Shown here: positions 1 through 31,410 of the stretch, one piece after another | How positions within the stretch are numbered: the first letter of the stretch is position 1 | How the letters are laid out: each line of letters begins with the position of its first letter | DNA from: Pseudomonas phage BRkr | Reading direction: 5' to 3' (one strand) | Length of the DNA stretch: 64,000 nt | Sequence record: LC765218.1 | The notes under the pieces: model-generated | Seen by the model: only the letters and a program-made list of their open reading frames with translations | Told to the model about the DNA's origin: nothing | Database searches by the model: none | Made by a program: the position numbers and the translations under genes

Positions 1-1365
1 AAGGAGGAATTCCAACGTTATCTGTTCTCCCATTATCAGGATGCAGATGCGATCGAGAACTCAGCTTCGTGTGACTGTGAGCATATCACAGAAGCATACA
101 AGCTTGGGGTAATCTGCGATAACTGCGGTACACCAGTAGTAAGCACGAGCAACCGACCCATCGTTCCATCGATGTGGATTCGGGCACCGGAAGGGGTGGA
201 TCGTCTGGTGAGTCCCGAGTTGTGGATTATGCTTTCAGGTTATATGTCGATGAAAGAATTCGACTTCCTGGAGTATCTGACCAACACCCAGTATCAGTAC
301 GATTACGATACGATCAGTTCGAAGGAAACAAAACGGAAACTTGACAAGTTGCTGGCTCGCCAGTTCCCGCGTGGACTGAACAACTTCGTTCAGAACTTCG
401 ATACGATCTTCCAGTTCTTGCTCGATAGCAGTATCATCAATACCAACAAAGGTGAGATGGCTGCATTCGTTAACCAGAATAAAGAACATCTGTTCCCGAA
501 GAACATTCCGATCCCAACTAAACTCTGCTTCGTTGTAGAGTCTACGACCTCGGGTGTTTACATCGATAAGCCGATCGGCGCAGCAATCGATGCGGTACTG
601 ACTATTAGTAGTATCGGTAGTTCGGCAATTCCGCTGAAACCAATCACTGTACAAAACCGTGTAGCTCGTGCATTGAAGCTTCTAGCTATCTTCCACGAGA
701 ACTACGACAAACAACGAATTGCACAGAAACCCGGTTTGGTTCGTCGACATGTACTAGGTGGTCGTCTTAACCTGACTGCACGTGCAGTAATTACTTCTAT
801 CAGTGATCCGCATGATTACGATGAACTTCACATTCCGTGGGGTGTTGGTTGTCAGCTGTTGAAGTATCATCTGATCAACAAGCTCAAACGCAAATTCCGT
901 ATGACGACTCGCCAAGCGAACTCGTTCATTTACGAGAACGTTCTGAAGTACAACGAAGTCATCGATCAACTGTTCAAAGAGATCATCGCGGAATCGAAGT
1001 ATAAGGGTCTTCCTTGTGTATTCCACCGCAACCCGACTCTGCAACGTGGTTCGACTCAACAGTTCTTCATCACCGTTATCAAGAATGACATTCGCGATAA
1101 CTCAATCAGCATGTCGGTCCTCTGTCTTAAAGCTCCTAATGCTGATTTCGACGGCGATCAGTTGAATTTGACGTTGATGCCCGATAACTATCTGGCTGAT
1201 GCAACTGAGCGAATCGCTCCGCATACTTGGGTACTAAGTCCTGATGATCCGCACGAGATCTCGGGTAACTTGGAACTACAAGGTCCGGTAGTAGAGACCA
1301 TCATCAACTATGCTCACGAGGACTATCTTCCGTCCTTGGAAGAATGGTTGGCGAAAGCAGCTTAA
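1..1365 (+). CDS. Multisubunit RNA polymerase beta-prime subunit, N-terminal fragment (5' partial, continues upstream of window)
   Basis: Frame 1 is open from nt 1. The translation contains the beta-prime Zn-finger C-x-C-x13-C-x2-C, where GVICDNCGTPV resembles E. coli GVICEKCGVEV. The absolutely conserved catalytic motif NADFDGD lies about 340 aa downstream. The ORF stops roughly 70 aa after NADFDGD, as expected for a split phage beta-prime. Confidence 0.85.
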   Translation, partial: KEEFQRYLFSHYQDADAIENSASCDCEHITEAYKLGVICDNCGTPVVSTSNRPIVPSMWIRAPEGVDRLVSPELWIMLSGYMSMKEFDFLEYLTNTQYQYDYDTISSKETKRKLDKLLARQFPRGLNNFVQNFDTIFQFLLDSSIINTNKGEMAAFVNQNKEHLFPKNIPIPTKLCFVVESTTSGVYIDKPIGAAIDAVLTISSIGSSAIPLKPITVQNRVARALKLLAIFHENYDKQRIAQKPGLVRRHVLGGRLNLTARAVITSISDPHDYDELHIPWGVGCQLLKYHLINKLKRKFRMTTRQANSFIYENVLKYNEVIDQLFKEIIAESKYKGLPCVFHRNPTLQRGSTQQFFITVIKNDIRDNSISMSVLCLKAPNADFDGDQLNLTLMPDNYLADATERIAPHTWVLSPDDPHEISGNLELQGPVVETIINYAHEDYLPSLEEWLAKAA

Positions 1366-1385
1366 CGATCCAAGAGGAGTAATCC

Positions 1386-2000
1386 ATGTTACAACAGGCA
1401 TACGGCGTCGATCTGATGGACATCGTCGCTGGTGGCCATCTGGATCAAAATACCACGAACTGGTTGGGTGAACGTTCTCAGACACTTCGTAGTAACCTGA
1501 GTTCGATGGCAACTTCGTTCTTCGATCAAGCACAAAATCTTTACCAGATGATCAGTACCAGCACAGCGGTACAGGCGATGCGGAACATTGTTGCTAAAAC
1601 GGATAACAGTTGGATGTCTAACAACATTCATGGACTGTATACGTTAGAGCAATTGCAAACCGCAAATCCGATCATGCAACGATACATCATGGCACAAGAA
1701 CGCCTGCGTGGTATGTATCTGAACAACATGGTTGAAGGTTATGCTGATTCGTATGTAAACCATCATGGTGATCGTGTTGGCGAACGCCATTACGATTATC
1801 GTCGTGTGATGGACGAAGTACTGGTTGTCAATGATGACCACACCGTAGTCAAGCAGTTCTACGAAGAAATCCCAGAAGGTGATAAAGAGCTTTCTCTCTA
1901 CGAGAAGGTTGATATTCTCCGTTCATGGAATCTTGTGAATGTTGCTCTAGATGAAAACGAAATGGATCCAACCAGTCCTGTAGGGAACTTGTTGGGTTAA
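1386..2000 (+). CDS. Hypothetical protein (possibly a further segment of the split beta-prime subunit or an RNAP-associated protein)
   Basis: 204-aa ORF starts 20 nt after the beta-prime fragment with RBS-like GAGGAG upstream. No recognisable motif. A palindromic terminator hairpin follows at 2011-2030. Confidence 0.5.
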   Translation: MLQQAYGVDLMDIVAGGHLDQNTTNWLGERSQTLRSNLSSMATSFFDQAQNLYQMISTSTAVQAMRNIVAKTDNSWMSNNIHGLYTLEQLQTANPIMQRYIMAQERLRGMYLNNMVEGYADSYVNHHGDRVGERHYDYRRVMDEVLVVNDDHTVVKQFYEEIPEGDKELSLYEKVDILRSWNLVNVALDENEMDPTSPVGNLLG

Positions 2001-2010
2001 CAACATAAAC

Positions 2011-2030
2011 GGAGTCCCTTAGGGGACTCC
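2011..2030 (+). terminator. Terminator hairpin GGAGTCCC-TTA-GGGGACTCC followed by CTTTATAACG
   Basis: Stem of 8-9 bp. Preceded by CAACATAAAC. Follows the stop of 1386-2000. Confidence 0.55.
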
Positions 2031-2058
2031 TTTATAACGAGGATATAAGGAATTTAGT

Positions 2059-2481
2059 ATGATCGAACCGGTGTCGTTTAAGGCCGATCCTAATAAAGCA
2101 CGTCGCCCTATTCTCGATAGTTACGCTCAAAAAATACAAGCTCAAAAAGGGCGTATGAATGTAGTAACTTACTGTGCCAATAACCCCGATAAGATGGTTA
2201 AGATACATCGCGACGGTAATAAATGGTATTGTTGTATTGAACGTGATGGCGTCGAAGTAATTGACAAAAATGAAATAATTGTCATGGGTCCCCCTGGATT
2301 CCCAGATACGATTCAATTACAGATTTCCAATGACCCTAATGATAAAGTACATTTCGTGGAAATTCATGATGGTCGTATTTGGGAAGCAATCAACGCTATC
2401 GGTGGCGGCTATACCCGAAAAAGGATTGAGTTGCCATTCGGACATCCTTTCTTAGACTTCCTTTTCGTGGAGTCCGATTGA
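2059..2481 (+). CDS. Hypothetical protein (moron-like, flanked by similar hairpins)
   Basis: 140-aa ORF with RBS AAGGA. The region is AT-richer than its neighbours. Near-identical palindromic hairpins flank it at 2011-2030 and 2499-2518. Confidence 0.55.
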   Translation: MIEPVSFKADPNKARRPILDSYAQKIQAQKGRMNVVTYCANNPDKMVKIHRDGNKWYCCIERDGVEVIDKNEIIVMGPPGFPDTIQLQISNDPNDKVHFVEIHDGRIWEAINAIGGGYTRKRIELPFGHPFLDFLFVESD

Positions 2482-2498
2482 GTCCAATGATGTAGTTA

Positions 2499-2541
2499 GC
2501 GGAGTCTTAGGACTCCGCATACTTTCCTATTATTTTTTTTT
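2499..2541 (+). terminator. Class-A intrinsic terminator (GCGGAGTC-TTAG-GACTCCGC + T9)
   Basis: 8-bp GC-rich stem with the T-run at 2531-2541. Follows gene 2059-2481. Confidence 0.7.
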
Positions 2542-2550
2542 GGAGTTGCC

Positions 2551-2955
2551 ATGACAGTCTCTCTCCCAACACTAGGTACTGATGGTTGGATTACCTCAAT
2601 GGAATCCAAAGCAGACTACATCATCTCTACTTTCCTTACAACAAATAGGTCCATGTCAACGTTACATAGGACACAAAATACTTCGCTTCAATATCTACTG
2701 AAGGAATATGCTAACGATATCCTTAATCTGGAAATTCAGCTTCGTGATGTACTAACAAATAAACTACGAACCGTGTTTGGTGAATCAGCTCAGGCTTTGG
2801 TTAGTATTGTTCCAGCGAGTCCAGATAATCCGGATGCATTCTCCATTCAGTTTACAGGTATAGTCACTGATGGTACTAAAGAGTATACAGTGGGTAAACT
2901 GGTTCAATTCCAAAATTCACACATTGTGAATATTGCTAATATCAACAACGGGTAA
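2551..2955 (+). CDS. Hypothetical protein
   Basis: 134-aa ORF. RBS GGAG lies 7 nt upstream. It follows the hairpin plus T9 terminator. Confidence 0.55.
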   Translation: MTVSLPTLGTDGWITSMESKADYIISTFLTTNRSMSTLHRTQNTSLQYLLKEYANDILNLEIQLRDVLTNKLRTVFGESAQALVSIVPASPDNPDAFSIQFTGIVTDGTKEYTVGKLVQFQNSHIVNIANINNG

Positions 2956-2959
2956 ATAT

Positions 2960-3550
2960 ATGTCGAATCTTGATTCTCAAATGGAAGAAGCACAGGTACT
3001 GGTCGATGGGGAATCAGATGTTAAATCTGCTCCTGACCTTAATGAAACAGATGCACTCATTCAACGAGTGGAACATCTTAATCGCACGGTAGAACGGCTG
3101 AGCGAAAGGCTTCATGTTTCTGAAAAGGCTATTAAACAAATTTTGGAAGCACTGACCCAATCGGAAGATCTACATGAACTCCGTGTCATTAAGATTCTCT
3201 CTAGTTTCTTTGGTGGGTTGAATAATAGCCTTCGTGAAAGTCTTGAGCATATGACTCAAGAAGTATCCACACGTCGTTATGGTTTTACTATTGAAGTTGT
3301 TGATGGTGTTAACGTAACGGCACACGAGAATAGTGTAATTGCAACCAAACGAGAAGATGGTGGTATTGATTTCGCATCTATTAATACCCCCGATCAAATC
3401 CAAAACCATGGAACCGAACCATTCGTTCAATACCTGAAGCAACATGATGAACTGTTTGAAGGTCAGAATGCAATCGTCATTAATATCCTTGCTTCTAAAG
3501 ATGCACTTGAAAAAGTACAAGGAGAATTGAATGAGCCAGTATCAAACTGA
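2960..3550 (+). CDS. Hypothetical coiled-coil protein
   Basis: The ORF track gives 2933, but an in-frame ATG at 2960 sits 5 nt after the upstream stop. Coiled-coil-like heptad sequence LNRTVERLSERLHVSEKAIKQILEAL. Confidence 0.55.
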   Translation: MSNLDSQMEEAQVLVDGESDVKSAPDLNETDALIQRVEHLNRTVERLSERLHVSEKAIKQILEALTQSEDLHELRVIKILSSFFGGLNNSLRESLEHMTQEVSTRRYGFTIEVVDGVNVTAHENSVIATKREDGGIDFASINTPDQIQNHGTEPFVQYLKQHDELFEGQNAIVINILASKDALEKVQGELNEPVSN

Positions 3551-4142
3551 TACAGCTGAAGAAATCCGCGCACGTCATGTAACGCGTGGAATCGATGATT
3601 GTCTGAATACAATCATCGCAAACGACGAGATGCAGTTGCCCATTATCCTGGAAGACAGGTTTGTGAAAGAGGTCTTACCCCTACTAGTAAGACCATGGGA
3701 TACTGATAACTTAACCCGTTATCGGAAATACGTACTAGAATTGACAAATCCTCTGCGTGTAGCTTCTAATGAAGCAGAGCCGAAGATTCTTTTTACGGTA
3801 CCAGCTTTGTATCCCAGGCCAGCTACCTCATGGGCAGCCGATGCTACAACTGCATCTATTTCACATGTAGTAGATTACATTGCTATTGAACGTGAACGGT
3901 CTCTGCAAGATCTTGAACCGTATATCACGGAATTCTTAAGTAGTGTATCTATTACTACAACCGTGGACAAAAGTGTTCTCATTCCTTTAGCTAACATCCT
4001 GGCGATGTACAACCGCACTTTCGAAGATGAAAGTGGGAATCCATTGTACACCCTCGCCGGGGGTGTTCCCGTTAAAGGGTCTAATGGTAGTGTACGTCAA
4101 CAGGCTGATACAAGCTCATTTGACGACGATTATGAAGACTGA
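3531..4142 (+). CDS. Hypothetical protein with acidic C-terminal tail (…SSFDDDYED)
   Basis: 203-aa ORF with RBS GGAGAA. The C-terminus is strongly acidic. It lies within a replication/recombination-looking module. Confidence 0.55.
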   Translation: MSQYQTDTAEEIRARHVTRGIDDCLNTIIANDEMQLPIILEDRFVKEVLPLLVRPWDTDNLTRYRKYVLELTNPLRVASNEAEPKILFTVPALYPRPATSWAADATTASISHVVDYIAIERERSLQDLEPYITEFLSSVSITTTVDKSVLIPLANILAMYNRTFEDESGNPLYTLAGGVPVKGSNGSVRQQADTSSFDDDYED

Positions 4143-5277
4143 TAAAACAAAGTTCCCCGGTACATTTCGATATATAAGCCTAGGTGATATTCACCTAGGT
4201 CATCGGACAACTCCTACCTCTCATATTCTGTTAAACTTAGATAAAGTTATTACAGATAAGATGTTAAAGGAACTCGATATGGTCATTATTACTGGTGACC
4301 TATTCGACCGACAGCTTAACTACGGTGATGAATCTGTACATCAGATAAACCGTTGGGCAACAACGTTCATGATGCGCTGCGCTGCAAATAACGTGATGCT
4401 CAGAATAGTTGAAGGTACACCTAGCCATGATAGGGAACAAACCCAGTTCTTTGTAGAGCAAAAAGTAAACGTAAATATTCCAGTCGATCTCCATTACTCT
4501 AAGACACTGTCAATTGAGTATATTGAGAAGCTCGATGCACATTTTCTTTATGTCCCAGATAAATGGCATCCATCAACAGCTGTTACTTTATCGCAGGTAA
4601 AAGAACAGATGGCTTCACTGGGCATAGAGAAGGTTGACTTTGCTATTATGCATGGTGCATTTAGTTATCAGCTACCTTCCATTGTAGAAGAACCAACTCA
4701 CGATGAAGAAGAATACTTAGCTTTAGTAAAACATCAGATCTTAATTGGTCATGTCCACAACATGACTATTAATGATAGAATTTACGCAGCTGGTTCTTTC
4801 GATCGAATCTGTCATGGCGATGAGATCGATAAAGGGTTGTTTCATTTTATCGTTCGTGAGGATGGTAATTTCACGGCGACATTTATAAAGAACAAGAATG
4901 CTAAGAAGTATGTTACTTTAGAAGTTCACGGTTATGATACTAAACAACTTCTTAATAAAGTAAAAGAAACCTTAGCAGAACTACCCAAGTATTCTGCTAT
5001 ACGACTGCGTTGTGACCCAATGGACGTAGCTAACGGCGATATCGAAACATTTCGAGTTGAGTATCCTAACTACGAATGGTCTGTCTTGGTGGAAAAAGCT
5101 ACTAAGAAAAAGAATAGTGTAGCGACAAGTCTAAAAGAATTTGACATGTCTAAGTTTATCGCTATTACACCAGAGACAATTAGTGATCTTCTTAAAGAAG
5201 AGATTTCAAAAGTCACTGATGATCAGACCATACAAGTCCGTTGTCTTGAAAGGTTGGCACAGTTCGTTAGGAATTAA
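4132..5277 (+). CDS. Mre11/SbcD-like calcineurin-fold metallophosphoesterase (DNA repair nuclease)
   Basis: Phosphoesterase motifs are present in order: GDIHLGH (D-x-H), ITGDLFDR (GD..D), EGTPSHDRE (GNHE-like), IMHGAF and LIGHVHNM (GHxH). The ORF track starts at 4027. The ATG at 4132 gives MKTDKTKF… immediately before motif I and overlaps the upstream stop (ATGA), so it is preferred. Confidence 0.75.
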   Translation: MKTDKTKFPGTFRYISLGDIHLGHRTTPTSHILLNLDKVITDKMLKELDMVIITGDLFDRQLNYGDESVHQINRWATTFMMRCAANNVMLRIVEGTPSHDREQTQFFVEQKVNVNIPVDLHYSKTLSIEYIEKLDAHFLYVPDKWHPSTAVTLSQVKEQMASLGIEKVDFAIMHGAFSYQLPSIVEEPTHDEEEYLALVKHQILIGHVHNMTINDRIYAAGSFDRICHGDEIDKGLFHFIVREDGNFTATFIKNKNAKKYVTLEVHGYDTKQLLNKVKETLAELPKYSAIRLRCDPMDVANGDIETFRVEYPNYEWSVLVEKATKKKNSVATSLKEFDMSKFIAITPETISDLLKEEISKVTDDQTIQVRCLERLAQFVRN

Positions 5278-5279
5278 AT

Positions 5280-6107
5280 ATGGAACTCATTGAAAGAGAT
5301 GTCGGACAGCTTCCAGTTAGTATCGGTACTTCTCTTGCCTTTGAGGGATTCTTAGGAATTCACCCGAATCAACCTAAGCATCCGATTGACGTTAAATCGG
5401 TAAAAGAGATATGGGTCAATCTTCGAACATTGGCCCGTAATCTTAATTCAGCTGTAGCTACGGATAAAGTCCATGGCATTAATCCAGCTGATGCTGTTAC
5501 AATCCTAATGCAGGAAATACAGACAATTCCGGTTGCACTGGGGCAACATGGATCGAAAGTCAAGGTGCGTTGGTATATCGCATCTAAAGACGCGGTCAAG
5601 TGGGAATACCCCAAGGCTATTTATAAAGAAGCCAAAACGCCAAAACAAATGGCATATGAAGTATACGAACGTTACGCGGCAATTGAACTTCTGCATCAAA
5701 TGAAAGATGCAGGAATAGAAGTGATGGAGATCGATAAAGCTCCAGTAAGGACCCAAGGTACGATCGCTTTGGTTACCCATTTTCCACATGAGCTATTGTG
5801 GAAACAATATTTCGATCGTCTTCTTTTGTTGGAATCCCACACTGGGAAAATAAAACCGTACAACTTGTGGTACACCAAGCTTAACGGCATAAAAGAGGAT
5901 ACGCCCATCCCATTCACTAAATTCACTCTACAAGTGTTTGGCGATAGCGTTGTTTTCGATGCACAACCAAAAGCTATTAAGGCCCAACTGAAACAGTTAG
6001 CTGCTTCGAGACGTTGGTCGCCTGTAACTACACAAGACAAAATCTATCATGACATTACAACTCATGGCAGTAAAGAACTTAAAGAATGTTACGCGCTATT
6101 ACGCTGA
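5280..6107 (+). CDS. Hypothetical protein (co-transcribed with nuclease)
   Basis: 275-aa ORF starting 3 nt after the nuclease stop. No motif recognised. Confidence 0.55.
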   Translation: MELIERDVGQLPVSIGTSLAFEGFLGIHPNQPKHPIDVKSVKEIWVNLRTLARNLNSAVATDKVHGINPADAVTILMQEIQTIPVALGQHGSKVKVRWYIASKDAVKWEYPKAIYKEAKTPKQMAYEVYERYAAIELLHQMKDAGIEVMEIDKAPVRTQGTIALVTHFPHELLWKQYFDRLLLLESHTGKIKPYNLWYTKLNGIKEDTPIPFTKFTLQVFGDSVVFDAQPKAIKAQLKQLAASRRWSPVTTQDKIYHDITTHGSKELKECYALLR

Positions 6108-6192
6108 TTAGAAAGAATACTCTTCATCGATATAGTACGTAGAAACACTTTCGCGAAGTGTAAAAAATTAATCCAATTGGAGCTAACACATC

Positions 6193-6939
6193 ATGTCTCA
6201 ACAATCCCAAGGCCCTGCCCTCTCTCCGTTCTCTGTAATGTCCACTTGGCTACATGCTGATCCGGTAGAAGGTTCTCAGAAACGTCCTAACCTGCGTTTC
6301 GGTGTCTTTGGTAACGTACCTCGCCTGACCGTACGTACTAACGTTCAAGGTGATCTGAATAACGGTAAGATTGAATTCAAAACTGACCTGGCTACTTTTG
6401 CAGCTGCAATGAAGTATGCACGGGATCTTGTCGATGGTAAAGATGTTCCTCAAGAACGTAAGTTTGTTCACCAAGATGACTTTGTTGGCGGTAAAAAGAT
6501 CGATAAGATCATTCCGATCACCACACTGGTAATCGGCCGCGAACAGAACTCTGGTCGTATTTACATTGCTCTTATCTCTTCTCAGCAACAGCGCCCGCGT
6601 ATTCGGTTCTTCTTCGGTCCGTCGAAATATCACACCATCCTGAATGGTGATGGTTCCCCCATCTCTCCGAAAGAGATGTCCGAAGCTTACGCTACCGGTT
6701 TCCTGGAACCGGCCACTGCAATCATTTACCAGATGATGGTAAGCAGTTTTGACCAGAACGCTAAGAACGTAGCCAACCCAGCTAACTTTGGTAACGGTGG
6801 CGGCGGTGGTCAACGTCAAGGTGGCTATAATGGCGGCAACCGTGGTGGTAATAGCGGTGGTGCTCCTCAAGGTTACAATCGTCCGTCCTCCGGTGGTTTC
6901 CAGGACAATGGCTTTGACGATTCCATTCCTGACTTCTAA
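6193..6939 (+). CDS. Putative single-stranded DNA-binding protein (SSB-like: Gly-rich linker + acidic DDSIPDF tail)
   Basis: The C-terminal ~70 aa are Gly/Asn/Gln-rich (GNGGGGGQRQGGYNGGNRGGNSGG). The protein ends DDSIPDF, closely resembling the bacterial SSB disordered linker and the DDDIPF acidic tip. RBS GGAG. The N-terminal domain is not recognisably an OB-fold by eye. Confidence 0.5.
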   Translation: MSQQSQGPALSPFSVMSTWLHADPVEGSQKRPNLRFGVFGNVPRLTVRTNVQGDLNNGKIEFKTDLATFAAAMKYARDLVDGKDVPQERKFVHQDDFVGGKKIDKIIPITTLVIGREQNSGRIYIALISSQQQRPRIRFFFGPSKYHTILNGDGSPISPKEMSEAYATGFLEPATAIIYQMMVSSFDQNAKNVANPANFGNGGGGGQRQGGYNGGNRGGNSGGAPQGYNRPSSGGFQDNGFDDSIPDF

Positions 6940-6947
6940 ATAAATCT

Positions 6948-6982
6948 ACAGCATCTCTTTGGTAAACACCGAGAGATGCTGT
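6948..6982 (+). terminator. Terminator hairpin (11-bp stem ACAGCATCTCT / AGAGATGCTGT) followed by ATGCCCTCTATTTCC
   Basis: Lies immediately after the SSB-like gene and before early promoter 1. Confidence 0.6.
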
Positions 6983-7020
6983 ATGCCCTCTATTTCCTGA
7001 CATTAAAAAATATCTCAGAT

Positions 7021-7036
7021 CTATATTACAACTGTG
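7021..7036 (+). promoter_or_regulatory. phiKZ-type early promoter, copy 1 (cTATATTACAACTGTG)
   Basis: One of four near-identical copies of cTATATTACAAnTGTGaATA. Each lies 39-47 nt upstream of a start codon and just downstream of a terminator. TATATTAC matches the early-promoter core reported for phiKZ-like virion RNAP. Confidence 0.65.
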
Positions 7037-7061
7037 CATCACCAGAACTAAAGAGGTATAA

Positions 7062-8639
7062 ATGCGCATCGACGTTACTGGGGTACAAGGCAACGGCTTT
7101 GTGGAAGTAACCACTAGCCATAAAGGAAACGAAATCAAGTGGAGTACAAGGGCTTATAGCAAAGTAAAACTCAATGATCCAACTCGTGTTTTCAAGGAAT
7201 TTAATGATTACCTAGAAAGCTGCGATGAGGCTGATCAAGATCGTATCTGGAACAGCTATGTCAAAATCAACGATCTGTTCAAGATGGACTTCGAACCGGC
7301 GCACATCTCCAGTACGCTGATCCATTACATCCATGAACTGTACTCAGCTCTGCCAATGAACAAACTCCGTCGTTGGCTGTTGACTATTGGTAATCTGCAT
7401 ATTCCACCAGAGATCCAGAAAACGATCACTGATGAATCGCGCTACACCAAGCGTGAGCAGACTTATCTTCAACATGACTACATCAACCTCGCTACTGTGG
7501 CACTTGGTCTTCGACCGATGGTTCCGATTTGGGGAGAATACATTGATTCGGGTACGGATCAAGAACTCCACAAAGAAAACGAAGTTGTTGGTTTGATTAG
7601 CCGTTGTGAAATTGCTAACTGGCCGCTACTTGAAAAAGATGAAGTGGGTGAAGATGTAGATACTGCATTTGACAAACTGGAAGGGTACGTCAAATTCTGC
7701 GTTGAAGATGAACCGACTACTTTGGGTAGCCTTTGGCGTGGTATGAGTTCAGTTGAAATTCCAGTACATCTTCGTTCGAAGGTTCTGGTTCGCCGACTGA
7801 CAATCGTTCCTCTGAACGATCCAATGTCCCACTCTATCGTAGCTAACACGTTCCGTTACGTACGTAGCAATCTCAATCCTGCCGAGCGTAGTCCAACTGA
7901 TCGCGTTAATGAAAAGCGTCCAGAAGGCGGCGGTGGTGACGACGAAGATAAAACTTCGTTTATTGAGGCACACAAGACGAAAGGTCGAGTTAGCCCAGGT
8001 GACATTGAGGCATACAACATCGATGCGATGGATTATGAGCTACTGGCACAAACGGTAGATCCTACTATCGACATGGAGAAACTGAGAAAATGTATTAGTT
8101 GCGTGAGTCAGGTCGCGAACTTTGAGATCCGTCCTCACCAAGTACTACTGGCACAATGGGTAATGGCAAAAGCTTTCCCGGCGCGTGCTTTCTATCATAT
8201 CTCCAAACTGCCAGTCAATACACTGTTGGCAACTACCCAGGCTCTACTGTGGCATTGGGGTTACCTTGATGTAGCTGTGTTCCTACAAGTCGAACCTGTT
8301 TATCACGGTGAACATGGATCGACTAATCAGCTTAGTAATACCCGAAGTGGTTCGAGAATTGCTCAGAAGTATAAGGCACAGCTCGATGAACTCTATCCGC
8401 ATATGAAACTCGCTAAGGTCCCCCAATCGGGAGAGATTCCTAAGCCAGATAACATGGCGGGTATTGCAGTGAATAACTGTAACCAGTCCATCCGCTCCTC
8501 TACTTGGATCTATCATGGTCCACCTGAGCTGTTCAAGCTTTCTGGACAGATTGCTCAGAACAACATTCTGATTCCACCTCCAAATATCAAGCACACGATC
8601 ACCGAAGTGGTTCTACACCTCGCTCAGATCAACCAGTAA
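7062..8639 (+). CDS. Early-expressed large protein, function unknown
   Basis: 525-aa ORF 40 nt downstream of early-promoter copy 1. RBS AAGAGG. Confidence 0.6.
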   Translation: MRIDVTGVQGNGFVEVTTSHKGNEIKWSTRAYSKVKLNDPTRVFKEFNDYLESCDEADQDRIWNSYVKINDLFKMDFEPAHISSTLIHYIHELYSALPMNKLRRWLLTIGNLHIPPEIQKTITDESRYTKREQTYLQHDYINLATVALGLRPMVPIWGEYIDSGTDQELHKENEVVGLISRCEIANWPLLEKDEVGEDVDTAFDKLEGYVKFCVEDEPTTLGSLWRGMSSVEIPVHLRSKVLVRRLTIVPLNDPMSHSIVANTFRYVRSNLNPAERSPTDRVNEKRPEGGGGDDEDKTSFIEAHKTKGRVSPGDIEAYNIDAMDYELLAQTVDPTIDMEKLRKCISCVSQVANFEIRPHQVLLAQWVMAKAFPARAFYHISKLPVNTLLATTQALLWHWGYLDVAVFLQVEPVYHGEHGSTNQLSNTRSGSRIAQKYKAQLDELYPHMKLAKVPQSGEIPKPDNMAGIAVNNCNQSIRSSTWIYHGPPELFKLSGQIAQNNILIPPPNIKHTITEVVLHLAQINQ

Positions 8640-8658
8640 AATTCAAGAGGTAAATTAC

Positions 8659-18401: not shown

Positions 18402-18404
18402 AGC

Positions 18405-18424
18405 CTATATTACAACTGTGAATA
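18405..18424 (+). promoter_or_regulatory. phiKZ-type early promoter, copy 2 (CTATATTACAACTGTGAATA)
   Basis: Identical over 16 nt to copy 1. Lies 42 nt upstream of the first gene of a cluster of six tiny membrane-protein genes. Confidence 0.65.
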
Positions 18425-18448
18425 TACACCCACATAAAGGACAATGTA

Positions 18449-18658
18449 ATGGCTATTATCACCAATGTATTTGCTTTCGCTATCATCACTCTGTTCATCG
18501 TCTTTTTCCTGAAACAGGGACTTGCGGTCATGGGTGTCAAAACGAACCACCTGCCGATTAAACTGGCTAAAGCTTTCAATGCATCTGGTCCTTTGGCAGC
18601 AATCCTTCTTGCCGTATACTTGATCATGGCAACCTTTTATAACATCTTTCTGAGTTGA
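18449..18658 (+). CDS. Small membrane protein (early)
   Basis: 69-aa ORF 44 nt downstream of early-promoter copy 2. Two hydrophobic helices. RBS AAAGGA. Confidence 0.55.
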   Translation: MAIITNVFAFAIITLFIVFFLKQGLAVMGVKTNHLPIKLAKAFNASGPLAAILLAVYLIMATFYNIFLS

Positions 18659-18662
18659 TACC

Positions 18663-18851
18663 ATGGGATGGATTGTACTGATACTCACCTTCTTCGCTTC
18701 TCTTACGGTTGGAGGTGTAATGACTTTCTATGGCTTGGTAGCTAGCAGTAAAACCTTTTCAGATAGAATCTCTATGGTTCTATTTGGTGTAGTTATTATT
18801 GCTATCACCGGCTATAGTGGATATCATTTATTCGACATGCTTCCAAAATAG
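18663..18851 (+). CDS. Small membrane protein (early)
   Basis: 62-aa ORF with two hydrophobic helices, 4 nt after the previous stop. Confidence 0.5.
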   Translation: MGWIVLILTFFASLTVGGVMTFYGLVASSKTFSDRISMVLFGVVIIAITGYSGYHLFDMLPK

Positions 18852-18859
18852 GAGTTAAC

Positions 18860-19120
18860 ATGGATTTGATGTTTACTAACCCAATAGCGTTTATTTACGG
18901 GACACTTAGCCTTCCTGGACTATTGATCATGACTGGCTATGCTGTATCGTGGTTGTTCGTAATGGGTGTATGCAAGTGGCTTCCTAATTGGAAGTACCTC
19001 TGCATGTTCCTCTGCGTCAGTTGGGCAATTAGCTTTGCGATTTATCTAGTAATGATCATTACGGCCCTGGTTAGCGTGTATACCCCTCTCCAGTTACCGC
19101 CGTGGACGCTCATGAACTAA
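18860..19120 (+). CDS. Small membrane protein (early)
   Basis: 86-aa ORF with RBS AGGAG and hydrophobic helices. Confidence 0.5.
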   Translation: MDLMFTNPIAFIYGTLSLPGLLIMTGYAVSWLFVMGVCKWLPNWKYLCMFLCVSWAISFAIYLVMIITALVSVYTPLQLPPWTLMN

Positions 19121-19133
19121 CAAGGAGTTAATC

Positions 19134-19373
19134 ATGGAAACCATCATGCTGATCTGGTGGATCTCTATTTCGATTATCGCTGGGTCCCTGTTCGTAGCAA
19201 AACTGGTAAAAGATAACGATGATGTTCGTCGAACTCGTTTACCAAAGAAAGATATCATCATGCTCGACCGCATTAATATGATTTGCACTGCTCTCATATG
19301 GGGAGCTGCTATCGTAGCGCTGATCACTCTCTTCTTGGGTGGTCTTTTCATGATGATTGAAGCACAAGTGTAA
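19134..19373 (+). CDS. Small membrane protein (early)
   Basis: 79-aa ORF with RBS AAGGAG and two TM helices. Followed by the bidirectional terminator. Confidence 0.5.
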   Translation: METIMLIWWISISIIAGSLFVAKLVKDNDDVRRTRLPKKDIIMLDRINMICTALIWGAAIVALITLFLGGLFMMIEAQV

Positions 19374-19383
19374 GACGGCATAA

Positions 19384-19427
19384 AGCTCCTACCTTCGGGT
19401 AGGAGCTATGCTTTATTTTTTTTTATT
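19384..19427. terminator. Bidirectional terminator (AGCTCCTACC-TTCG-GGTAGGAGCT). T-run on + side, CTTTATGCCGTC on minus side
   Basis: 10-bp stem with a UUCG loop. Lies between + gene 19134-19373 and minus gene 19423-19845. Confidence 0.7.
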
Positions 19428-19845
19428 TTAATCCAAGATCTTTCTCGATTTGTCTAGCTTGCGATGTACTTTGAATAGCCTTCGACTCTGCAAGTTCAAT
19501 CATGAACAAACAATCATTAAAGGGTAGTTCAAAGAACTCTAGTAAAGATAAACCATAAATGTCATTGATCTTGTAATTGACAAACTTCCGTATCCAAGTT
19601 CTTTCAGGTCCACCTTCTACGACGTTTTCCTTAGGATGCATTCTAACCAGATCTAAAGGATCAGCCTCTGGTGAATCATGATCGAAAATACCGTAGTCTT
19701 TATGGTAGGCCTTCCTGGTCAACATTTCGGCAATAGCTGGCCTTACGGCATCTAGCGTTCGCACGAGTTCATCGAATGCACTCTTACCATTAACAGTCTT
19801 GCGACCGAAAGAGTTCATTGTAACGTGCCCGTTGTCGTCCTCCAA
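19423..19845 (-). CDS. Hypothetical protein
   Basis: 140-aa minus-strand ORF. The ORF-track start is a TTG, and an internal ATG (MNSFGRK…) is an alternative. The stop lies in the T-run of the bidirectional terminator. Confidence 0.5.
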   Translation of the reverse strand: MEDDNGHVTMNSFGRKTVNGKSAFDELVRTLDAVRPAIAEMLTRKAYHKDYGIFDHDSPEADPLDLVRMHPKENVVEGGPERTWIRKFVNYKINDIYGLSLLEFFELPFNDCLFMIELAESKAIQSTSQARQIEKDLGLK

Positions 19846-19883
19846 ATTAATTGTTAGACGACTATGCCGGGGGTCCTCGTTGA

Positions 19884-21485
19884 TTACTCCAGGTGCTTGG
19901 CTTTCTGGCCCGCCAACGTGAAAAATATTGCCATCATGTCTAGCGGTACAAGGTGCGGGAAACGTTCGTTGAATGCTTGGCCCTGAGGACCTTTACATTC
20001 TTTGCAGTTATGCGATGGAAGAGCTACCACAGCCAGTACACAAGAGTTAGTATACTCATGTACGGTATCAAAGAACTGCTCCGCGTACTGCGGATCACTC
20101 AGAGTGTTCGCCAGATAATCACTAATGATTTCCTGATCGTCGGAAAGCAGTTGATCTTCGAAGTCTTCTACATCGTCGTCCTTTTCATAGATACCATCTA
20201 CCCAATGAGCATACTGCATGGCGATAGTAGCTTTACTCAGTTTATCAATGTACGCTGAACGTTGAACACCATGTGGCGGTTCGTTAAATGTACCTTGAGA
20301 CATTTCGATCAATGTCTGAGACCACTGAGAAGCAGCCATCTTACGTTGAGCGATAGTCGGGATAGCAAGACGAACACCAATATCACCAAACCAGAATACT
20401 TTCTTACCGCCAATACCGAAACCTTCACGGTAAGCTTTGAAGTCTTCATCCGTAGCAGGTGCAAATTTCTTAGCGATAAATTTACGCTGATCATTACTGA
20501 ATACAGTGTTGTCAAACCAAACGATAGACGACATGTTAAGTTTTGCAGTGATACGAGCCGTACAGTTGTCCGGGTCTGCAATACATGGAACGTCGTAGTT
20601 GAATCCATCAATGTACATTGTAGAAGCTAGGGCATGATGCAGGATAGCTTCATCAAAGATCGATAGTTCATGTTCCAGGTCACTTGGAGTAATGAAGGAC
20701 TTGTTCGATGCAATAACACAAGACAGAGCCAGGTCAGTCATCGCGTTCATCATTACGGAACCAGCGTTAGAGAACGACATACCTTTGGTTTGCATTCCCA
20801 GCCGTAGCTTGATCTGCTGCATTTCTGTTTGCAATGCGACTACTTCAGTAAGTGTCGGAGCACGCAGGCGAAGCCAGATACCCGAACGAGGCATAAACGT
20901 TTCGTATGTCGCACCAAGACCAGATTTCTTGGAGAGGTATGCCAACAGTTCTTCTTTACTGTGTCGTTTATTACGATCGATCTTTTGAGAAGGGCGGCCT
21001 GGTCGAATAAGGTTACCGTTATCATGACCAGTAATACCTTGTTGCCATACAGAACCTTCACGTTCCGTCCCACCGATAGGAGTGGGGTCAAGGTTAGTAT
21101 GGTTCATACCAGCTACTAGAGAAATCAACCAATCTCGGTCACTGCTAGTAGTAGTGAGATCACCTTGGTGCATTCCATTCAATAGCGCCGAGTGACGTTC
21201 CAATACCTGGTTAAAGGTCTTGGGGTTTTCTAGAATGAAACTCATCAAAGAGGTCATACCAGGAATAGCTTCACTAGAACAAGAACGTGTCTCAGTGAAG
21301 TTAACTGGTTTCTGGTCAATTACCAGAGGAGGTAGTTCAGCAGCAGGCGAAGAAGATACTTCTTCCGCAGGTGCGTCCGGTAGAGTGGGACCCGTGGGCC
21401 CCTGTTCTACTTCTGCATCAGCTTGCTGTTCCCAATTACCCTCAGCAGGATAATTGTCTTCTTTATCCATATCAAGCTCTTGCAT
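19884..21485 (-). CDS. Hypothetical large protein with acidic N-terminus
   Basis: 533-aa ORF. On the minus strand the RBS TAAGGTAATACAAAATG is 11 nt downstream of the previous gene's stop. Antisense ORFs 19953-20258 and 20262-20630 on the + strand are rejected. Confidence 0.65.
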   Translation of the reverse strand: MQELDMDKEDNYPAEGNWEQQADAEVEQGPTGPTLPDAPAEEVSSSPAAELPPLVIDQKPVNFTETRSCSSEAIPGMTSLMSFILENPKTFNQVLERHSALLNGMHQGDLTTTSSDRDWLISLVAGMNHTNLDPTPIGGTEREGSVWQQGITGHDNGNLIRPGRPSQKIDRNKRHSKEELLAYLSKKSGLGATYETFMPRSGIWLRLRAPTLTEVVALQTEMQQIKLRLGMQTKGMSFSNAGSVMMNAMTDLALSCVIASNKSFITPSDLEHELSIFDEAILHHALASTMYIDGFNYDVPCIADPDNCTARITAKLNMSSIVWFDNTVFSNDQRKFIAKKFAPATDEDFKAYREGFGIGGKKVFWFGDIGVRLAIPTIAQRKMAASQWSQTLIEMSQGTFNEPPHGVQRSAYIDKLSKATIAMQYAHWVDGIYEKDDDVEDFEDQLLSDDQEIISDYLANTLSDPQYAEQFFDTVHEYTNSCVLAVVALPSHNCKECKGPQGQAFNERFPHLVPLDMMAIFFTLAGQKAKHLE

Positions 21486-21496
21486 TTTGTATTACC

Positions 21497-22093
21497 TTAT
21501 TTCACGAAGGAAACAGTATCAACACCAGCTTCTTGCATCTTAGCAATGAGACCCATCAGCAGTGGTTGAACAGCTGTTTCTACTTTATGTTGGAGATTTG
21601 CGTAACCCAAAGTCAGCTTACCGATTTGATCGAGATCAGCCAGATCAGGTGTACCAGTTTTGTTTACGTGAAGAATACTAAGAGCTTCCAGAGCACTGAT
21701 CATCTGTTCAATATCAGACATGCAGTTTTGCAGATCTTTAGAGAAACCTTCAGGATCACTGAGTTTACTCAGAATTTCTTCACGACGCTCCAGCGCCGGA
21801 ATGATAACAATGGAAGTAGCATTAAGAGCAGCAGCTGTAGTGCGATACAATTCGCGAAGAATGGCCCAGCCATCTTCTTTAATGAGTTGTTGTGCTGCTA
21901 CAGCAGAAACTTCTACAGCTTGGTCCAGTTGTTCTTTCGGGGACAGTGCGGTCATTTGATTGTGCTCCAATTTTGGATTATGGGGGAATATTTTATCAAG
22001 GGCTTCAGAGAGCCGTTTTTCATCTTCAGGAGTTGGTTTTGGATGGTGTATTGTATCCATCAAATTAAACGGCAGCTCACTAAACTTACTCAT
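21497..22093 (-). CDS. Hypothetical protein
   Basis: 198-aa ORF with RBS AGGAG 8 nt upstream on the minus strand. Preferred over the overlapping + ORF 21371-22096, which has Cys/Phe-rich junk composition. Confidence 0.6.
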   Translation of the reverse strand: MSKFSELPFNLMDTIHHPKPTPEDEKRLSEALDKIFPHNPKLEHNQMTALSPKEQLDQAVEVSAVAAQQLIKEDGWAILRELYRTTAAALNATSIVIIPALERREEILSKLSDPEGFSKDLQNCMSDIEQMISALEALSILHVNKTGTPDLADLDQIGKLTLGYANLQHKVETAVQPLLMGLIAKMQEAGVDTVSFVK

Positions 22094-22217
22094 TGAAGCT
22101 CCTAATGGAATAGTGTAGTAACATAGATGTTACAGGAAACGTAACTTTTCACATATTACGAAGACATACCTGCAACATAACCGTATGTTAGATATTCATT
22201 TATACAGGATAATTCCA

Positions 22218-23069
22218 ATGAAAGAAATGCTAGATAGTATCCTCACTCCCCTAGTGATGGAAGAACGAAAAGAAATCATGCTTGAATGCGTAGCTTCCCT
22301 AGAGGAAATGGATTACTCGGCAGCTCTTGATGAACTGCATACCGTTTGCTCTATTGCTGATGACAATGCAGACACTATGATGTTGCTTGGCCGTATCGAC
22401 GATATTATCCGTGTGGCCCATGATCAGGTTCTAGCTGCACACGAAGTTAAAGTATCGGATGAGGCGACACAAGAGCAACGGCTTGCAATTGTCCATACTA
22501 TTTTAGGTTTGCCAAATTATATTCTTCCTGACCAGATTGAGTTGATTCTACAAGGCGATTTCGATAATGAGGAAATTCTTGCTCATCTGGTACCTATGTT
22601 TGAACGCCTTTCTTTCGACGAAGTGTGGCCTTTAATTAATGAAGTATCTGTTTCTTTCATCGATGCTTTAAAAGCGATGGTGCAAGACACTATGATGACG
22701 CGTGGTCACATCGACGAATACATCGCTCCTGTATCCCGTATCCGTGTTCTTAATCGATTGATGAATACCATAGGTCGAGATAAGTTTAGTATGGTTCTCG
22801 AACTGTCTAATTCTGGTATGCGAGTCGGACATGACTGGTTAGAACTCCTTTCTAATAGTCTTGAAAGCCTGGACAATAAGAACGCTCAAGATGCGGCTTA
22901 TGAAATGGTAGGTCTTGCATTCTTCTCTAATCTTCACCTCGATAGTATCTATAGCACTGTTAAAGTTTCTATCGATGAATACACAGAGAACGAGATGGAA
23001 CGTAATATCATGGAACGGGTGATCGACGAGATCAAGCGTAAAATGGGAAAGCTCTATGAAACTGCGTGA
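22218..23069 (+). CDS. Hypothetical protein
   Basis: The ORF track starts at 22185, but that ATG lies inside a TATGTT palindrome. The in-frame ATG at 22218 with upstream AGGA is preferred. Either start is possible. Confidence 0.55.
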   Translation: MKEMLDSILTPLVMEERKEIMLECVASLEEMDYSAALDELHTVCSIADDNADTMMLLGRIDDIIRVAHDQVLAAHEVKVSDEATQEQRLAIVHTILGLPNYILPDQIELILQGDFDNEEILAHLVPMFERLSFDEVWPLINEVSVSFIDALKAMVQDTMMTRGHIDEYIAPVSRIRVLNRLMNTIGRDKFSMVLELSNSGMRVGHDWLELLSNSLESLDNKNAQDAAYEMVGLAFFSNLHLDSIYSTVKVSIDEYTENEMERNIMERVIDEIKRKMGKLYETA

Positions 23070-24399
23070 TTATTTCCTTTTAGGAATTAAAGCTGGTCTA
23101 TGTAAAAAACGTGCATGGATGAACAGTCTGTTCAACATCGTTTATAATAACGATGATATTCCTAACATGCCTTATAAGCCACATTTTGGTGAAGGCCGAA
23201 TGTGGTTCTACATGCCGAATGGCGATGAGAAAATTTTCATCGATGATTACATCGAAGGTCGAGCTCCTTTACACTTCCGTGATGAATTCATTTTACAACC
23301 GGGTGAAATAGAAAACTACAAAGGTACTGAACCGTTACGTACTACGTATGGTAATGTATTCGTTAACTACCTCTGTCTGGTCCTTCCGTTCGGGGATATC
23401 TTCCCATTTCAGACAGGATATTTCTCACCTGCTAAAATTGAGAATGAGCTGCTAGATAGACTGATTGACGACCGTGAAGATGGTAACGTCACTGAACGAG
23501 CACCGGATGGTAAGATCTACGTTTGGCAATATCTAATGTTTGCGGATCATTGTCTAGCTATTCCCGCTTACGCAGATAGCCTTGTTACTTCTGTTACACG
23601 TAAATCGATGACTGCTCACCCAGACAGAGATAAAGTACGTACAGCTCTTTTGGAACAATATAAAGATCAATTAACTGACCCAGCTATTGTTGCAAAAATA
23701 GGTAACGAACTTATTAAGATGGATGAAGAGTATCTATCTGACGATGAGTCGTATGAGTTCTATGATGCAAAACATGCTAAGCTATTCGGCGGTGTTCGTA
23801 AGAAAGTTCACTATCTATTTGGTGGTGAATCTCCGTTCTCGGATGGTACGTCGGTTGAACTTATCTCTAAGTCACTTGAAGAAGGCATTGATACAGATCA
23901 CATGCCTGTGATGAACAACTCTCTTCGTTATGGTTCTTATAACCGTGGTGCTCAGACTGCATTGGGTGGCGAGTCCACCAAGACTATTTATCGAATGGTC
24001 GGTACAGTCCGAATTATAGAACCTGACTGTAAAACACATATTGGTGTTCCAACGCGAGTAGATAAGTTTAATGCTAAAGAACTCGTTGGTTACACTATGG
24101 TTAAGGATGGAGAATCCATTCTTATTACCTCTGAAAACATTGATGGACTCATGGGTCAAATTATCGATGTACGCGGTCCAATGACGTGTAAGTCTGGACG
24201 TGACATTGAAAAGGGTATCCTTGGACGAGATAAGAATATCTGTGCTACTTGTGCGGGTAAAGCTCTTGCTGAGAACCCCAACGGTATTCCTGCTGCGGCA
24301 GCTGGTGTGGGTGGACGCTTCTTGAGTATCTTCATGTCGAAGATGCACAGTGCTACTCTGAAGACTGTTAAATGGGACCCGGTCCGTCGTCTTTCTTAA
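23056..24399 (+). CDS. Second multisubunit RNA polymerase beta-prime paralog, middle fragment (bridge helix to start of trigger loop)
   Basis: YNRGAQTALGGESTKTIYRMVGTVRIIEPDCKTHIG matches E. coli [43 protein letters not shown] (bridge helix). VRGPMTCKSGRD…NICATCAGKALAENPNGIPAAAAGVGGRFLSIF matches [25 protein letters not shown]…[25 protein letters not shown]. The ORF ends shortly after. Confidence 0.75.
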   Translation: MKLRDYFLLGIKAGLCKKRAWMNSLFNIVYNNDDIPNMPYKPHFGEGRMWFYMPNGDEKIFIDDYIEGRAPLHFRDEFILQPGEIENYKGTEPLRTTYGNVFVNYLCLVLPFGDIFPFQTGYFSPAKIENELLDRLIDDREDGNVTERAPDGKIYVWQYLMFADHCLAIPAYADSLVTSVTRKSMTAHPDRDKVRTALLEQYKDQLTDPAIVAKIGNELIKMDEEYLSDDESYEFYDAKHAKLFGGVRKKVHYLFGGESPFSDGTSVELISKSLEEGIDTDHMPVMNNSLRYGSYNRGAQTALGGESTKTIYRMVGTVRIIEPDCKTHIGVPTRVDKFNAKELVGYTMVKDGESILITSENIDGLMGQIIDVRGPMTCKSGRDIEKGILGRDKNICATCAGKALAENPNGIPAAAAGVGGRFLSIFMSKMHSATLKTVKWDPVRRLS

Positions 24400-25965: not shown

Positions 25966-27234
25966 ATGTTCGAATCATTATTAGCAGTTCTTAATAAGTA
26001 CGATGATACATTTCCACCAGGATCACAAATTCCAATTGCTGGTAGTGATTACTTTAGTTATTTCGGTGGGTTTAAAGCAGGCCTACCACAACCTGAAGCA
26101 TTCTCTAATCTAGTTGGTTTCACAGAGGGTACATTACACACTAGTGAAACAACTTGGTTTAAATACAAAGAGAATAACAGACTTATTTATTTACCGAAAA
26201 CACCTTTTAGACGAGGCGCTGCTAGATCGATTATAGAGAACCATGGACTCATCGATGGTAAGGAAATACAGATCGGTAGACATAAGTTCCTATGTCGTGT
26301 TATGACGGGTATTGATAACCCTGGTGCCAGTGCAACTGGTGGCGGCGAATATAACCGTTTGGTTTATTCGATGGTAATACCCAGACAATCTGGTGCAGCG
26401 GCATTTGAGTCATTCTCAACAAGTGACTTTGGTTTAGCTAGTACCGGTGGGGCTAATTGGGTACGTGAAGTCCAAACTACTGGTACTGACGTAGGTAAAG
26501 GCTTCTATCGTGGTTTTAATTCAATCAGCTATGTGGGTAGAGAAGTAGCTGGTTCAAATATGAATAACTACGGATGGCGTCCAATTCTAATTTGGATTGA
26601 CCCGGACATTATTCCATCGAAAGGACCTGGTACTGAATCACTTATAGCCGGTAATGACGATATAGGTTACTTTGGTCGTGTCCCATCTAGTGAATTAATT
26701 ACAGCATCTGCGTTAGCTACCTTAGTTGGTTTGAGCGAGGGGACTGTTCTTAATGAGGCACCGGACTGGTTTAAGTTCTCTCACAGAAGTACCATTCTTT
26801 ATATCCCACAAAAACCACTCAAAAACAACATGACATGGAATTCTCTGGCAAGTGCTGGATTGAATGGTAGGGGTAAACGAATCACTATCGGTGACAACGT
26901 ATACCAGTGTCGATTGATGTATATTGGCGCTACCGATACAGGTATAACCAATAACGCTGCTCCAGGAAGAGAATGGCGTGATCTAATGTATAACGTCCAT
27001 GGAACTGTAACCGGTACAAAGGCATGGGAAAACTTAACCAACGCTGATCTCGGGGTAGGTGGACAAGGAGCCGGTAGTTATAGCTGGGGTCAGGAAACTG
27101 GCTTAGTCGATGGTAAAACAGCATATGCCGGTATCGGTTATAGTAACATGTCCCAGTTGAATATTAACGTACCCACCAATACGGGTGCACATATGGGTTG
27201 GCGTCCTGTTCTAGAGTTGATTGGTAAAGCTTAA
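25966..27234 (+). CDS. Putative virion (fibre-like) protein with internal tandem duplication
   Basis: Two ~200-aa homologous halves. One runs from LVGFTEGTLHTSETTWFKYKENNRLIYLPKTP through NNYGWRPILIWI. The other runs from LVGLSEGTVLNEAPDWFKFSHRSTILYIPQKP through AHMGWRPVLELI. A TATG-containing tail sits 44 nt upstream. Confidence 0.6.
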   Translation: MFESLLAVLNKYDDTFPPGSQIPIAGSDYFSYFGGFKAGLPQPEAFSNLVGFTEGTLHTSETTWFKYKENNRLIYLPKTPFRRGAARSIIENHGLIDGKEIQIGRHKFLCRVMTGIDNPGASATGGGEYNRLVYSMVIPRQSGAAAFESFSTSDFGLASTGGANWVREVQTTGTDVGKGFYRGFNSISYVGREVAGSNMNNYGWRPILIWIDPDIIPSKGPGTESLIAGNDDIGYFGRVPSSELITASALATLVGLSEGTVLNEAPDWFKFSHRSTILYIPQKPLKNNMTWNSLASAGLNGRGKRITIGDNVYQCRLMYIGATDTGITNNAAPGREWRDLMYNVHGTVTGTKAWENLTNADLGVGGQGAGSYSWGQETGLVDGKTAYAGIGYSNMSQLNINVPTNTGAHMGWRPVLELIGKA

Positions 27235-27243
27235 CGGCATAAA

Positions 27244-27263
27244 GCCACACCTAATGGTGGGGC
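27244..27263. terminator. Bidirectional terminator (AACGGCATAAAG-GCCACACC-TAAT-GGTGGGGC). Minus side followed by CTTTATGCCGTT
   Basis: Lies between convergent genes 25966-27234 (+) and 27273-27641 (-). Confidence 0.55.
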
Positions 27264-27272
27264 AATATGTTG

Positions 27273-29581: not shown

Positions 29582-29689
29582 TTTTGAGCTTCCTTTTTAA
29601 AACTTAAATCACGTAGTATTAATCACCAGAGTAATCTCTCATTCGAGCTTTACTTTATGATTAATAAAACTGACGAGTAGGCCACTCTC

Positions 29690-30937: not shown

Positions 30938-30952
30938 ACAAGGTAGACCGAA

Positions 30953-31393: not shown

Positions 31394-31410
31394 TTCAGGG
31401 AGGGGTCGTC

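Follow-up and report, generated by a model that had tools for sequence, protein, structure and literature searches.

Phages related to phiKZ have reportedly been known to carry two split RNA polymerases (RNAPs) since the genome and proteome work on phiKZ and 201phi2-1. The subunit composition, timing and localisation of the phiKZ enzymes have been described (PMC8287921, PMC7598289, PMC10612078, PMC5105663). The phiKZ non-virion RNAP (nvRNAP) is expressed early, is imported into the phage nucleus and is specific for TATG late promoters (PMC10612078, PMC8287921), and it contains gp68, an integral sigma-like subunit on which both assembly of the active enzyme and promoter binding depend (PMC8287921). 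In the virion RNAP (vRNAP), beta-prime is divided into N, middle and C pieces, and the candidate C piece is a small separate protein, gp176 in phiKZ and gp244 in SPN3US (PMC7598289; PMC5105663). Moreover, phiKZ gp80 coprecipitates with gp180, gp178 and gp149 (PMC10612078). Here, we compare these systems with a 64,000-nucleotide (nt) stretch of the genome of Pseudomonas phage BRkr (LC765218.1), hereafter called the window. We conclude that the window almost certainly holds pieces of two paralogous split multisubunit RNAPs, namely, four nvRNAP genes and one vRNAP gene of a phiKZ-family jumbo phage.

RNA polymerase genes in the window

The RNAP genes of the window are as follows.

1..1365, + strand: nvRNAP beta-prime N subunit, ortholog of phiKZ gp55 (match to 7ogp_A, Pfam, motifs)
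7062..8639, + strand: fifth, sigma-like nvRNAP subunit, ortholog of phiKZ gp68 (match to 7ogp_B)
12066..14177, + strand: nvRNAP beta C subunit, ortholog of phiKZ gp71-73, as an uninterrupted open reading frame (ORF) (match to 7ogp_C, Pfam)
14204..16177, + strand: nvRNAP beta-prime C subunit, ortholog of phiKZ gp74 (match to 7ogp_D; bridge helix, CSRCYG, trigger loop)
23056..24399, + strand: vRNAP middle beta-prime subunit, ortholog of phiKZ gp80 (identity to gp80, phrog_2962, profile, Foldseek)

Judged by homology to the solved phiKZ nvRNAP (PDB 7OGP, chains A to D), the window carries four of the five nvRNAP genes, those like gp55, gp68, gp71-73 and gp74. The product of 1-1365 matches gp55 (7ogp_A) with an E value of 2.9e-226 and the beta-prime N chain of phage AR9 with one of about 1e-21. 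Dozens of bacterial beta-prime chains match it with E values near 1e-6, across E. coli residues 331-468, and Pfam RNA_pol_Rpb1_2 matches as well (E 4.9e-10). The gene is truncated by the start of the window, as residue 1 of the query corresponds to residue 55 of gp55 and about 54 amino acids (aa) are lost. A Zn finger, C-x-C-x12-C-x2-C, lies at nt 70-126, with the same spacing as the Zn-binding motif of E. coli beta-prime. The catalytic NADFDGD is encoded at nt 1138-1158, and the ORF stops 68 codons later. Thus, 1-1365 has what marks a beta-prime N piece: the Zn finger, NADFDGD and an end soon after the double-psi beta-barrel.

For the product of 12066-14177, the match to gp71-73 (7ogp_C) has an E value of 0, with further matches to AR9 beta C (4e-14), residues 1061-1130 of E. 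coli beta (5e-5) and Pfam Rpb2_6 (3.3e-6). The protein contains the second double-psi beta-barrel that marks beta C. By tblastn, phiKZ gp71 aligns to 12090-13253 of the window and phiKZ gp73 aligns to 13290-14168; no match was obtained for gp72. The product of 14204-16177 matches gp74 (7ogp_D) with an E value of 0 and 71% identity, and AR9 beta-prime C (7s00_D) at 4e-13. As befits a beta-prime C piece, it has a bridge helix, the CxxCYG motif (CSRCYG, at nt 15197-15214, aa 332) and a trigger loop; the bridge helix and trigger loop elements of phiKZ gp74 have been described (PMC8287921). An initial annotation, made from the letters and ORF translations, had read these three genes as beta-prime N, beta C and beta-prime C, and each assignment stands. 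The same annotation took the direct adjacency of beta C and beta-prime C to differ from phiKZ. That is incorrect, as phiKZ gp74 starts at 66626, 30 nt past the end of gp73 at 66595; the order is identical, and the adjacency was discarded as an unusual feature.

The list of RNAP genes in the initial annotation was right as to its four ORFs, with homology far beyond chance in database, profile and fold matches, but it overlooked the gene for the fifth nvRNAP subunit at 7062-8639. The product of that gene matches phiKZ gp68 (7ogp_B) over its full length with an E value of 4.4e-204 and 57% identity. We found no beta or beta-prime sequence similarity in it, which is why a reading of RNAP motifs could not see it.

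The gene at 23056-24399 belongs to the other enzyme. Aligned full length, its product shares 70.4% identity with phiKZ gp80, which the phiKZ record labels "RNA polymerase beta subunit / structural head protein." The product also matches phrog_2962, "RNA polymerase beta subunit," with an E value of 9e-157, and it cross-matches the gp74 family, phrog_3015, with an E value of 8.7e-8. A single-sequence phmmer search of the protein against PDB gave no match. When a profile built from an alignment of 45 homologs was searched against PDB, all 30 matches up to an E value of 1 were beta-prime or beta-double-prime chains, with phiKZ gp74 (6.7e-4) and Francisella beta-prime residues 748-904, from the bridge helix to CxxCYG (9.5e-4), as the best. 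The profile alignment covers the bridge helix, the DCGT motif and R-P-x-TC...C-x-x-C-x-G. Moreover, an AlphaFold model made from the same 45-sequence alignment (mean predicted local distance difference test score, pLDDT, 82) gave 249 Foldseek matches in PDB at an E value of at most 0.001, and the best 50 were all RNAP beta-prime or beta-double-prime chains, headed by AR9 beta-prime C.

Along the gene, the bridge helix lies at about nt 23917-24015 and a degenerate CATCAG stands in the place of CxxCYG (nt 24241-24258). The protein stops just past the first trigger helix (...FMSKMHSATLK...). The second beta-prime segment with bridge helix and region G claimed by the initial annotation is therefore real, but it is a middle piece, from bridge helix to first trigger helix, and not a full C-half. 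That is the extent of proteins of the phiKZ gp80 and SPN3US gp42 type, which run from the bridge helix to the trigger loop.

Two RNAPs are assigned because the genes have orthologs in the phiKZ nvRNAP, an enzyme that has been purified and solved, and in phiKZ gp80, and because of the literature on both enzymes (PMC8287921, PMC7598289, PMC10612078). On the same grounds, the initial claim of two paralogous split RNAP sets in a phiKZ-like jumbo phage, with 12066-16177 in the non-virion set and 23056-24399 in the virion set, was borne out. No result contradicted it. Two limits apply: Pfam models have no match in the gp68-, gp74- or gp80-like protein, and pairwise BLASTP between the gp74-like and gp80-like proteins is marginal, with an E value of 0.02. 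Because of the latter, the paralogy of these two beta-prime pieces rests on profile and fold searches, and because those searches match beta-prime, we regard the two as true paralogs.

The nvRNAP beta-prime N gene varies among relatives of the window phage. PS119XW and phiLBG22 have a group I intron of 362 bp (match to Rfam RF00028, 75.7 bits, E 1.9e-19; PS119XW locus positions 1137-1442) directly behind the NADFDGD codons, at the point that follows window nt 1158. The intron-less allele is the one in the window, and also in PA1C, HHBS36_1 and phiHQ, going by the uninterrupted gene annotation of these three.

Alternative readings of the RNAP pieces can be weighed against these results. The pieces might be parts of larger beta and beta-prime genes, either exons or fragments, that were left when introns or mobile elements split those genes and that are now spliced together or decaying. 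Indeed, the RNAP genes of relatives do take insertions, both the intron just described and gp72 within beta C of phiKZ. The window copies, however, have neither insertion, and the pieces lie kilobases apart with unrelated genes between them, each being an ORF complete from start to stop codon. Moreover, the phiKZ orthologs are distinct polypeptide chains in the solved enzyme (PMC8287921). We consider this explanation effectively refuted.

Alternatively, the 23056-24399 product might be a virion structural protein whose likeness to beta-prime is due to chance or is vestigial, such that the window would hold only one RNAP. The failures of Pfam and of the single-sequence PDB search, the marginal BLASTP value and the degenerate CxxCYG motif could all be so explained. 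A chance likeness would hardly be expected, however, to yield profile matches to beta-prime chains exclusively, over the bridge helix and the DCGT and cysteine motifs, or the run of beta-prime folds among the best Foldseek matches, or the phrog cross-match to the gp74 family; and phiKZ gp80 was pulled down with gp180, gp178 and gp149 (PMC10612078). A purely structural protein is thus highly improbable, and we retain the assignment of 23056-24399 to a second RNAP.

Genomic setting and the remaining subunits

The window derives from a phiKZ-family jumbo phage of Pseudomonas aeruginosa that is essentially identical to PA1C, phiHQ, HHBS36_1 and PS119XW. In megablast searches of deposited phage genomes, window positions 1-24400 were 99.6-99.7% identical at 100% coverage to PA1C (MK599315), phiHQ, HHBS36_1, vB_PaeM_PS119XW (two records) and phiLBG22, and these relatives differ from the window by small indels over that region. 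HPP-Temi was an 85% match, and PhiPA3 matched at about 74%, in patches. The HHBS36_1 record labels all four ORFs of the initial annotation "RNA polymerase beta subunit," and the PA1C record does so for three of the four, the gp80-like ORF being a "hypothetical protein." In their records, PS119XW and HPP-Temi are assigned to Pawinskivirus, and phiHQ is assigned to Chimalliviridae. Both markers of Chimalliviridae were found: a homolog of chimallin (phiKZ gp54, "nuclear shell protein") is annotated directly before the region of the window in PA1C and HHBS36_1, and a gp69/Imp1 homolog lies within the window.

By tblastn of phiKZ proteins, set against the phiKZ annotation, the window is fully colinear with phiKZ from gp65 to gp81. 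Homologs of Imp1 (gp69) and Imp6 (gp67) lie at 8659-10293 and 6193-6939, with 49% and 53% identity to phiKZ, respectively. A homolog of Imp3 (gp59) lies at 1386-2000, an equivalence taken from the annotation notes of PhiPA3 and PA1C only. In phiKZ, gp59, gp67 and gp69 have been described as the nuclear import factors Imp3, Imp6 and Imp1 (bioRxiv 10.1101/2024.03.27.586873), and in the window, as in phiKZ, their genes alternate with those of the nvRNAP subunits. The gp80-like gene and the gp79-like virion gene upstream of it overlap by 14 nt, and the gene for a gp81-like virion protein comes next.

The initial annotation saw no beta N-half in the window, and indeed gp123 and gp178, the beta N-half queries, gave only noise there (tblastn, E at least 0.89). 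The wider set of gp123, gp149, gp176, gp178 and gp180 likewise gave only noise over the full 64,000 nt (E at least 0.78). That a beta N-half or further vRNAP subunits are hidden between 24.4 and 64 kb was ruled out by these searches, and the HHBS36_1 annotation of that region names none. All five homologs are found in PA1C outside the window, with 63-76% identity to phiKZ.

118893-120518 of PA1C: gp123-like nvRNAP beta N, about 11 kb past the end of the window, 70% identical to gp123
153265-153903 of PA1C: gp149-like
180291-181013 of PA1C: gp176-like
182980-187341 of PA1C: gp178-like
187344-188996 of PA1C: gp180-like

The gp123-type beta N polypeptide and the vRNAP partners gp178, gp149, gp180 and candidate gp176 are thus encoded in the near-identical PA1C genome but not in the window itself. 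The gp178-like and gp180-like genes abut in PA1C with a 2-nt gap (PA1C locus 25981-31997), and in phiKZ gp179 lies between them.

Promoter-like motifs and the helicase gene

How the two enzymes might be deployed can be modeled on phiKZ (PMC8287921, PMC7598289, PMC10612078). The vRNAP, including the 23056-24399 product, would be packaged in the head and enter the cell with the DNA. It would then read early genes from AT-rich promoters of the TATATTAC type, among them the nvRNAP genes at 1-1365, 7062-8639, 12066-14177 and 14204-16177. The five nvRNAP polypeptides would assemble without alpha or omega and be imported into the phage nucleus, where the enzyme would read middle and late genes, those of the vRNAP included, and the vRNAP products would go to new heads. 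By analogy, the gp80-like product is probably a virion component, as phiKZ gp80 is annotated as a "structural head protein" and assembles with gp180 (PMC10612078). The initial annotation placed the vRNAP piece among late-looking genes; the vRNAP genes of phiKZ, however, are reported to be middle genes, not late ones (PMC10612078).

Motifs and hairpins that may bear on transcription are the following.

7022..7036, + strand: early-promoter-like motif TATATTACAACTGTG, 26 nt 5' of the gp68-like start codon
18406-18420, 58469-58483 and 59631-59645, + strand: further exact copies of TATATTACAANTGTG, each 5' of a run of small + strand ORFs
12023..12042, + strand: degenerate motif variant ATCTATATAATCATTCTGCA, 5' of the beta C gene, weak and found by inspection
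16194..16213, + strand: hairpin GGGAGGGC-TTTG-GCTCTCCC, in the interval between the beta-prime C and helicase genes
11598-11623: strong hairpin after the gp70-like gene

The exact sequence TATATTACAANTGTG occurs four times in the window, on the + strand only (7022, 18406, 58469 and 59631), and never in 100 shuffles. Every copy precedes a gene on the + strand or a series of small ones on that strand, and the copies are also alike further upstream (ACATTTAA...TTTAAAG). The TATATTAC core is found in phiKZ at the syntenic site 5' of gp68 and also 5' of gp76, gp121, gp166 and gp185. It has been predicted to be a promoter in phiKZ, and the window version agrees with the consensus of 201phi2-1 (...TTTRARR_BTATATTACDWHDGTG) (PMC7058600). 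Early promoters of phiKZ-like phages are AT-rich, lie at about -10 and are read by the injected virion enzyme (PMC7598289). We infer that the TATATTACAANTGTG sites serve as early promoters in the window phage and that the copy at 7022-7036 may be a target of the injected virion RNAP. Early expression of the gp68-like gene by that enzyme would follow, this promoter-like motif being the one argument for it.

Nonrandomness is confined to the exact extended motif: neither the bare 8-mer TATATTAC (4 copies versus 2.1 expected) nor the 15-mer with 3 mismatches (9 versus 8.4) is enriched in the window. The degenerate ATCTATATAATCATTCTGCA could tentatively be taken as a promoter variant, and phiKZ carries a comparable degenerate variant 5' of gp70.1/gp71. 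The ORF run at 18449-19373, after the 18406 copy, is syntenic with phiKZ gp76-76.3. The hairpin at 16194-16213 is possibly a terminator; by alignment, phiKZ and PhiPA3 have a hairpin of other sequence at the equivalent position. Finally, sigma-70-type promoter matches are rarer than in shuffles (23 versus 38), a shortage that fits host-independent transcription and proves nothing.

The gene that follows the nvRNAP beta-prime C gene has a broken reading frame.

16234-17768: gp75-type superfamily 2 (SF2) helicase in two reading frames (shift zone 16639-16671), directly 3' of the nvRNAP beta-prime C gene
16644-16650: slippery heptamer for a -1 shift, G_GGA_AAG, inside the Walker A codons
16650-16656: slippery heptamer for a -1 shift, G_GGA_AAA, inside the Walker A codons

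What breaks the frame is a 1-nt deletion in the Walker A codons (CAAAC-GGGAAAGGGAAAACC), as comparison with phiKZ, PhiPA3 and HPP-Temi shows. Those three phages lack the deletion, whereas the window and each of the five close relatives examined carry it. The frame-1 codons ACG GGA AAG GGA AAA form the two in-phase X_XXY_YYZ heptamers, and a -1 slip would give a 511-aa protein 97% identical, without gaps, to the intact HPP-Temi helicase. If the gene were expressed by programmed -1 ribosomal frameshifting, with the predicted junction peptide ...QTGKGKTLTSLA..., the deletion could be tolerated because both frames read G-K-G-K. We regard such frameshifting as conceivable and rather doubtful. A hairpin 6 nt past the first heptamer was rejected as a significant element, its fold having a z-score of -1.3. 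Alternatively, translation could reinitiate at TTG 16611, with GKGKT kept in frame 3, or the helicase could be a dead gene.

A T-run 5' of the helicase ATG (16228-16233) has six T residues in the window and HHBS36_1 and five in PA1C. Because of the 5-T run, the annotated helicase coding sequence of PA1C begins 55 nt farther upstream, immediately behind the gp74-like stop. The likelier start, by conservation in phiKZ and PhiPA3, is ATG 16234.

Comparison with phiKZ and AR9

The RNAP genes themselves are nothing new, being known at the levels of annotation, biochemistry and atomic structure. The significance of the assignment is small beyond correct annotation, as the nvRNAP has already been purified and solved by cryo-electron microscopy (cryo-EM). 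What is useful is a precise subunit map for a Pawinskivirus-type phage, with the gp68-like fifth subunit, gp80 as middle beta-prime and the intron polymorphism at the catalytic motif.

Bacillus phage AR9 is a distant relative whose genomic DNA contains uracil, and according to a review it encodes no pseudo-nucleus (PMC7598289). No similarity could be detected between the gp68-like protein and gp226, the promoter-specificity subunit of the AR9 nvRNAP. The split beta/beta-prime architecture of the AR9 nvRNAP (PDB 7S00/7S01) is nonetheless shared with the window and is detectable by sequence, and AR9 supplies the best Foldseek match of the gp80-like model.

The nvRNAP of phiKZ (gp55, gp68, gp71-73, gp74 and gp123; PDB 7OGP/7OGR/8QUE/9RJS) is far closer. 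The window has full-length orthologs of four of its five chains, with 57-71% identity for gp68, gp71, gp73 and gp74, and the counterpart of gp123 lies outside the window, at the PA1C position given above. The neighbors are those of the phiKZ locus, SbcD, gp66, Imp6/gp67, Imp1/gp69, gp70 and the helicase gp75, and their order is kept. Where phiKZ differs is beta C, which is split by about 1.2 kb with gp72 between gp71 and gp73 (phiKZ locus 8251-11571), whereas beta C in the window is one ORF; the gp72 insertion is the sole difference between the two phages in the arrangement of beta C and beta-prime C. The gp71-74 region of PhiPA3 exceeds that of the window by about 500 nt, and its only annotation is as a misc_feature fragment. 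The phiKZ vRNAP (gp178, gp149, gp180, gp80 and candidate gp176) is represented within the window by just one subunit, the gp80-like protein, which is 70% identical to its phiKZ counterpart, and in both phages its gene overlaps that of gp79 by 14 nt and is followed by gp81.

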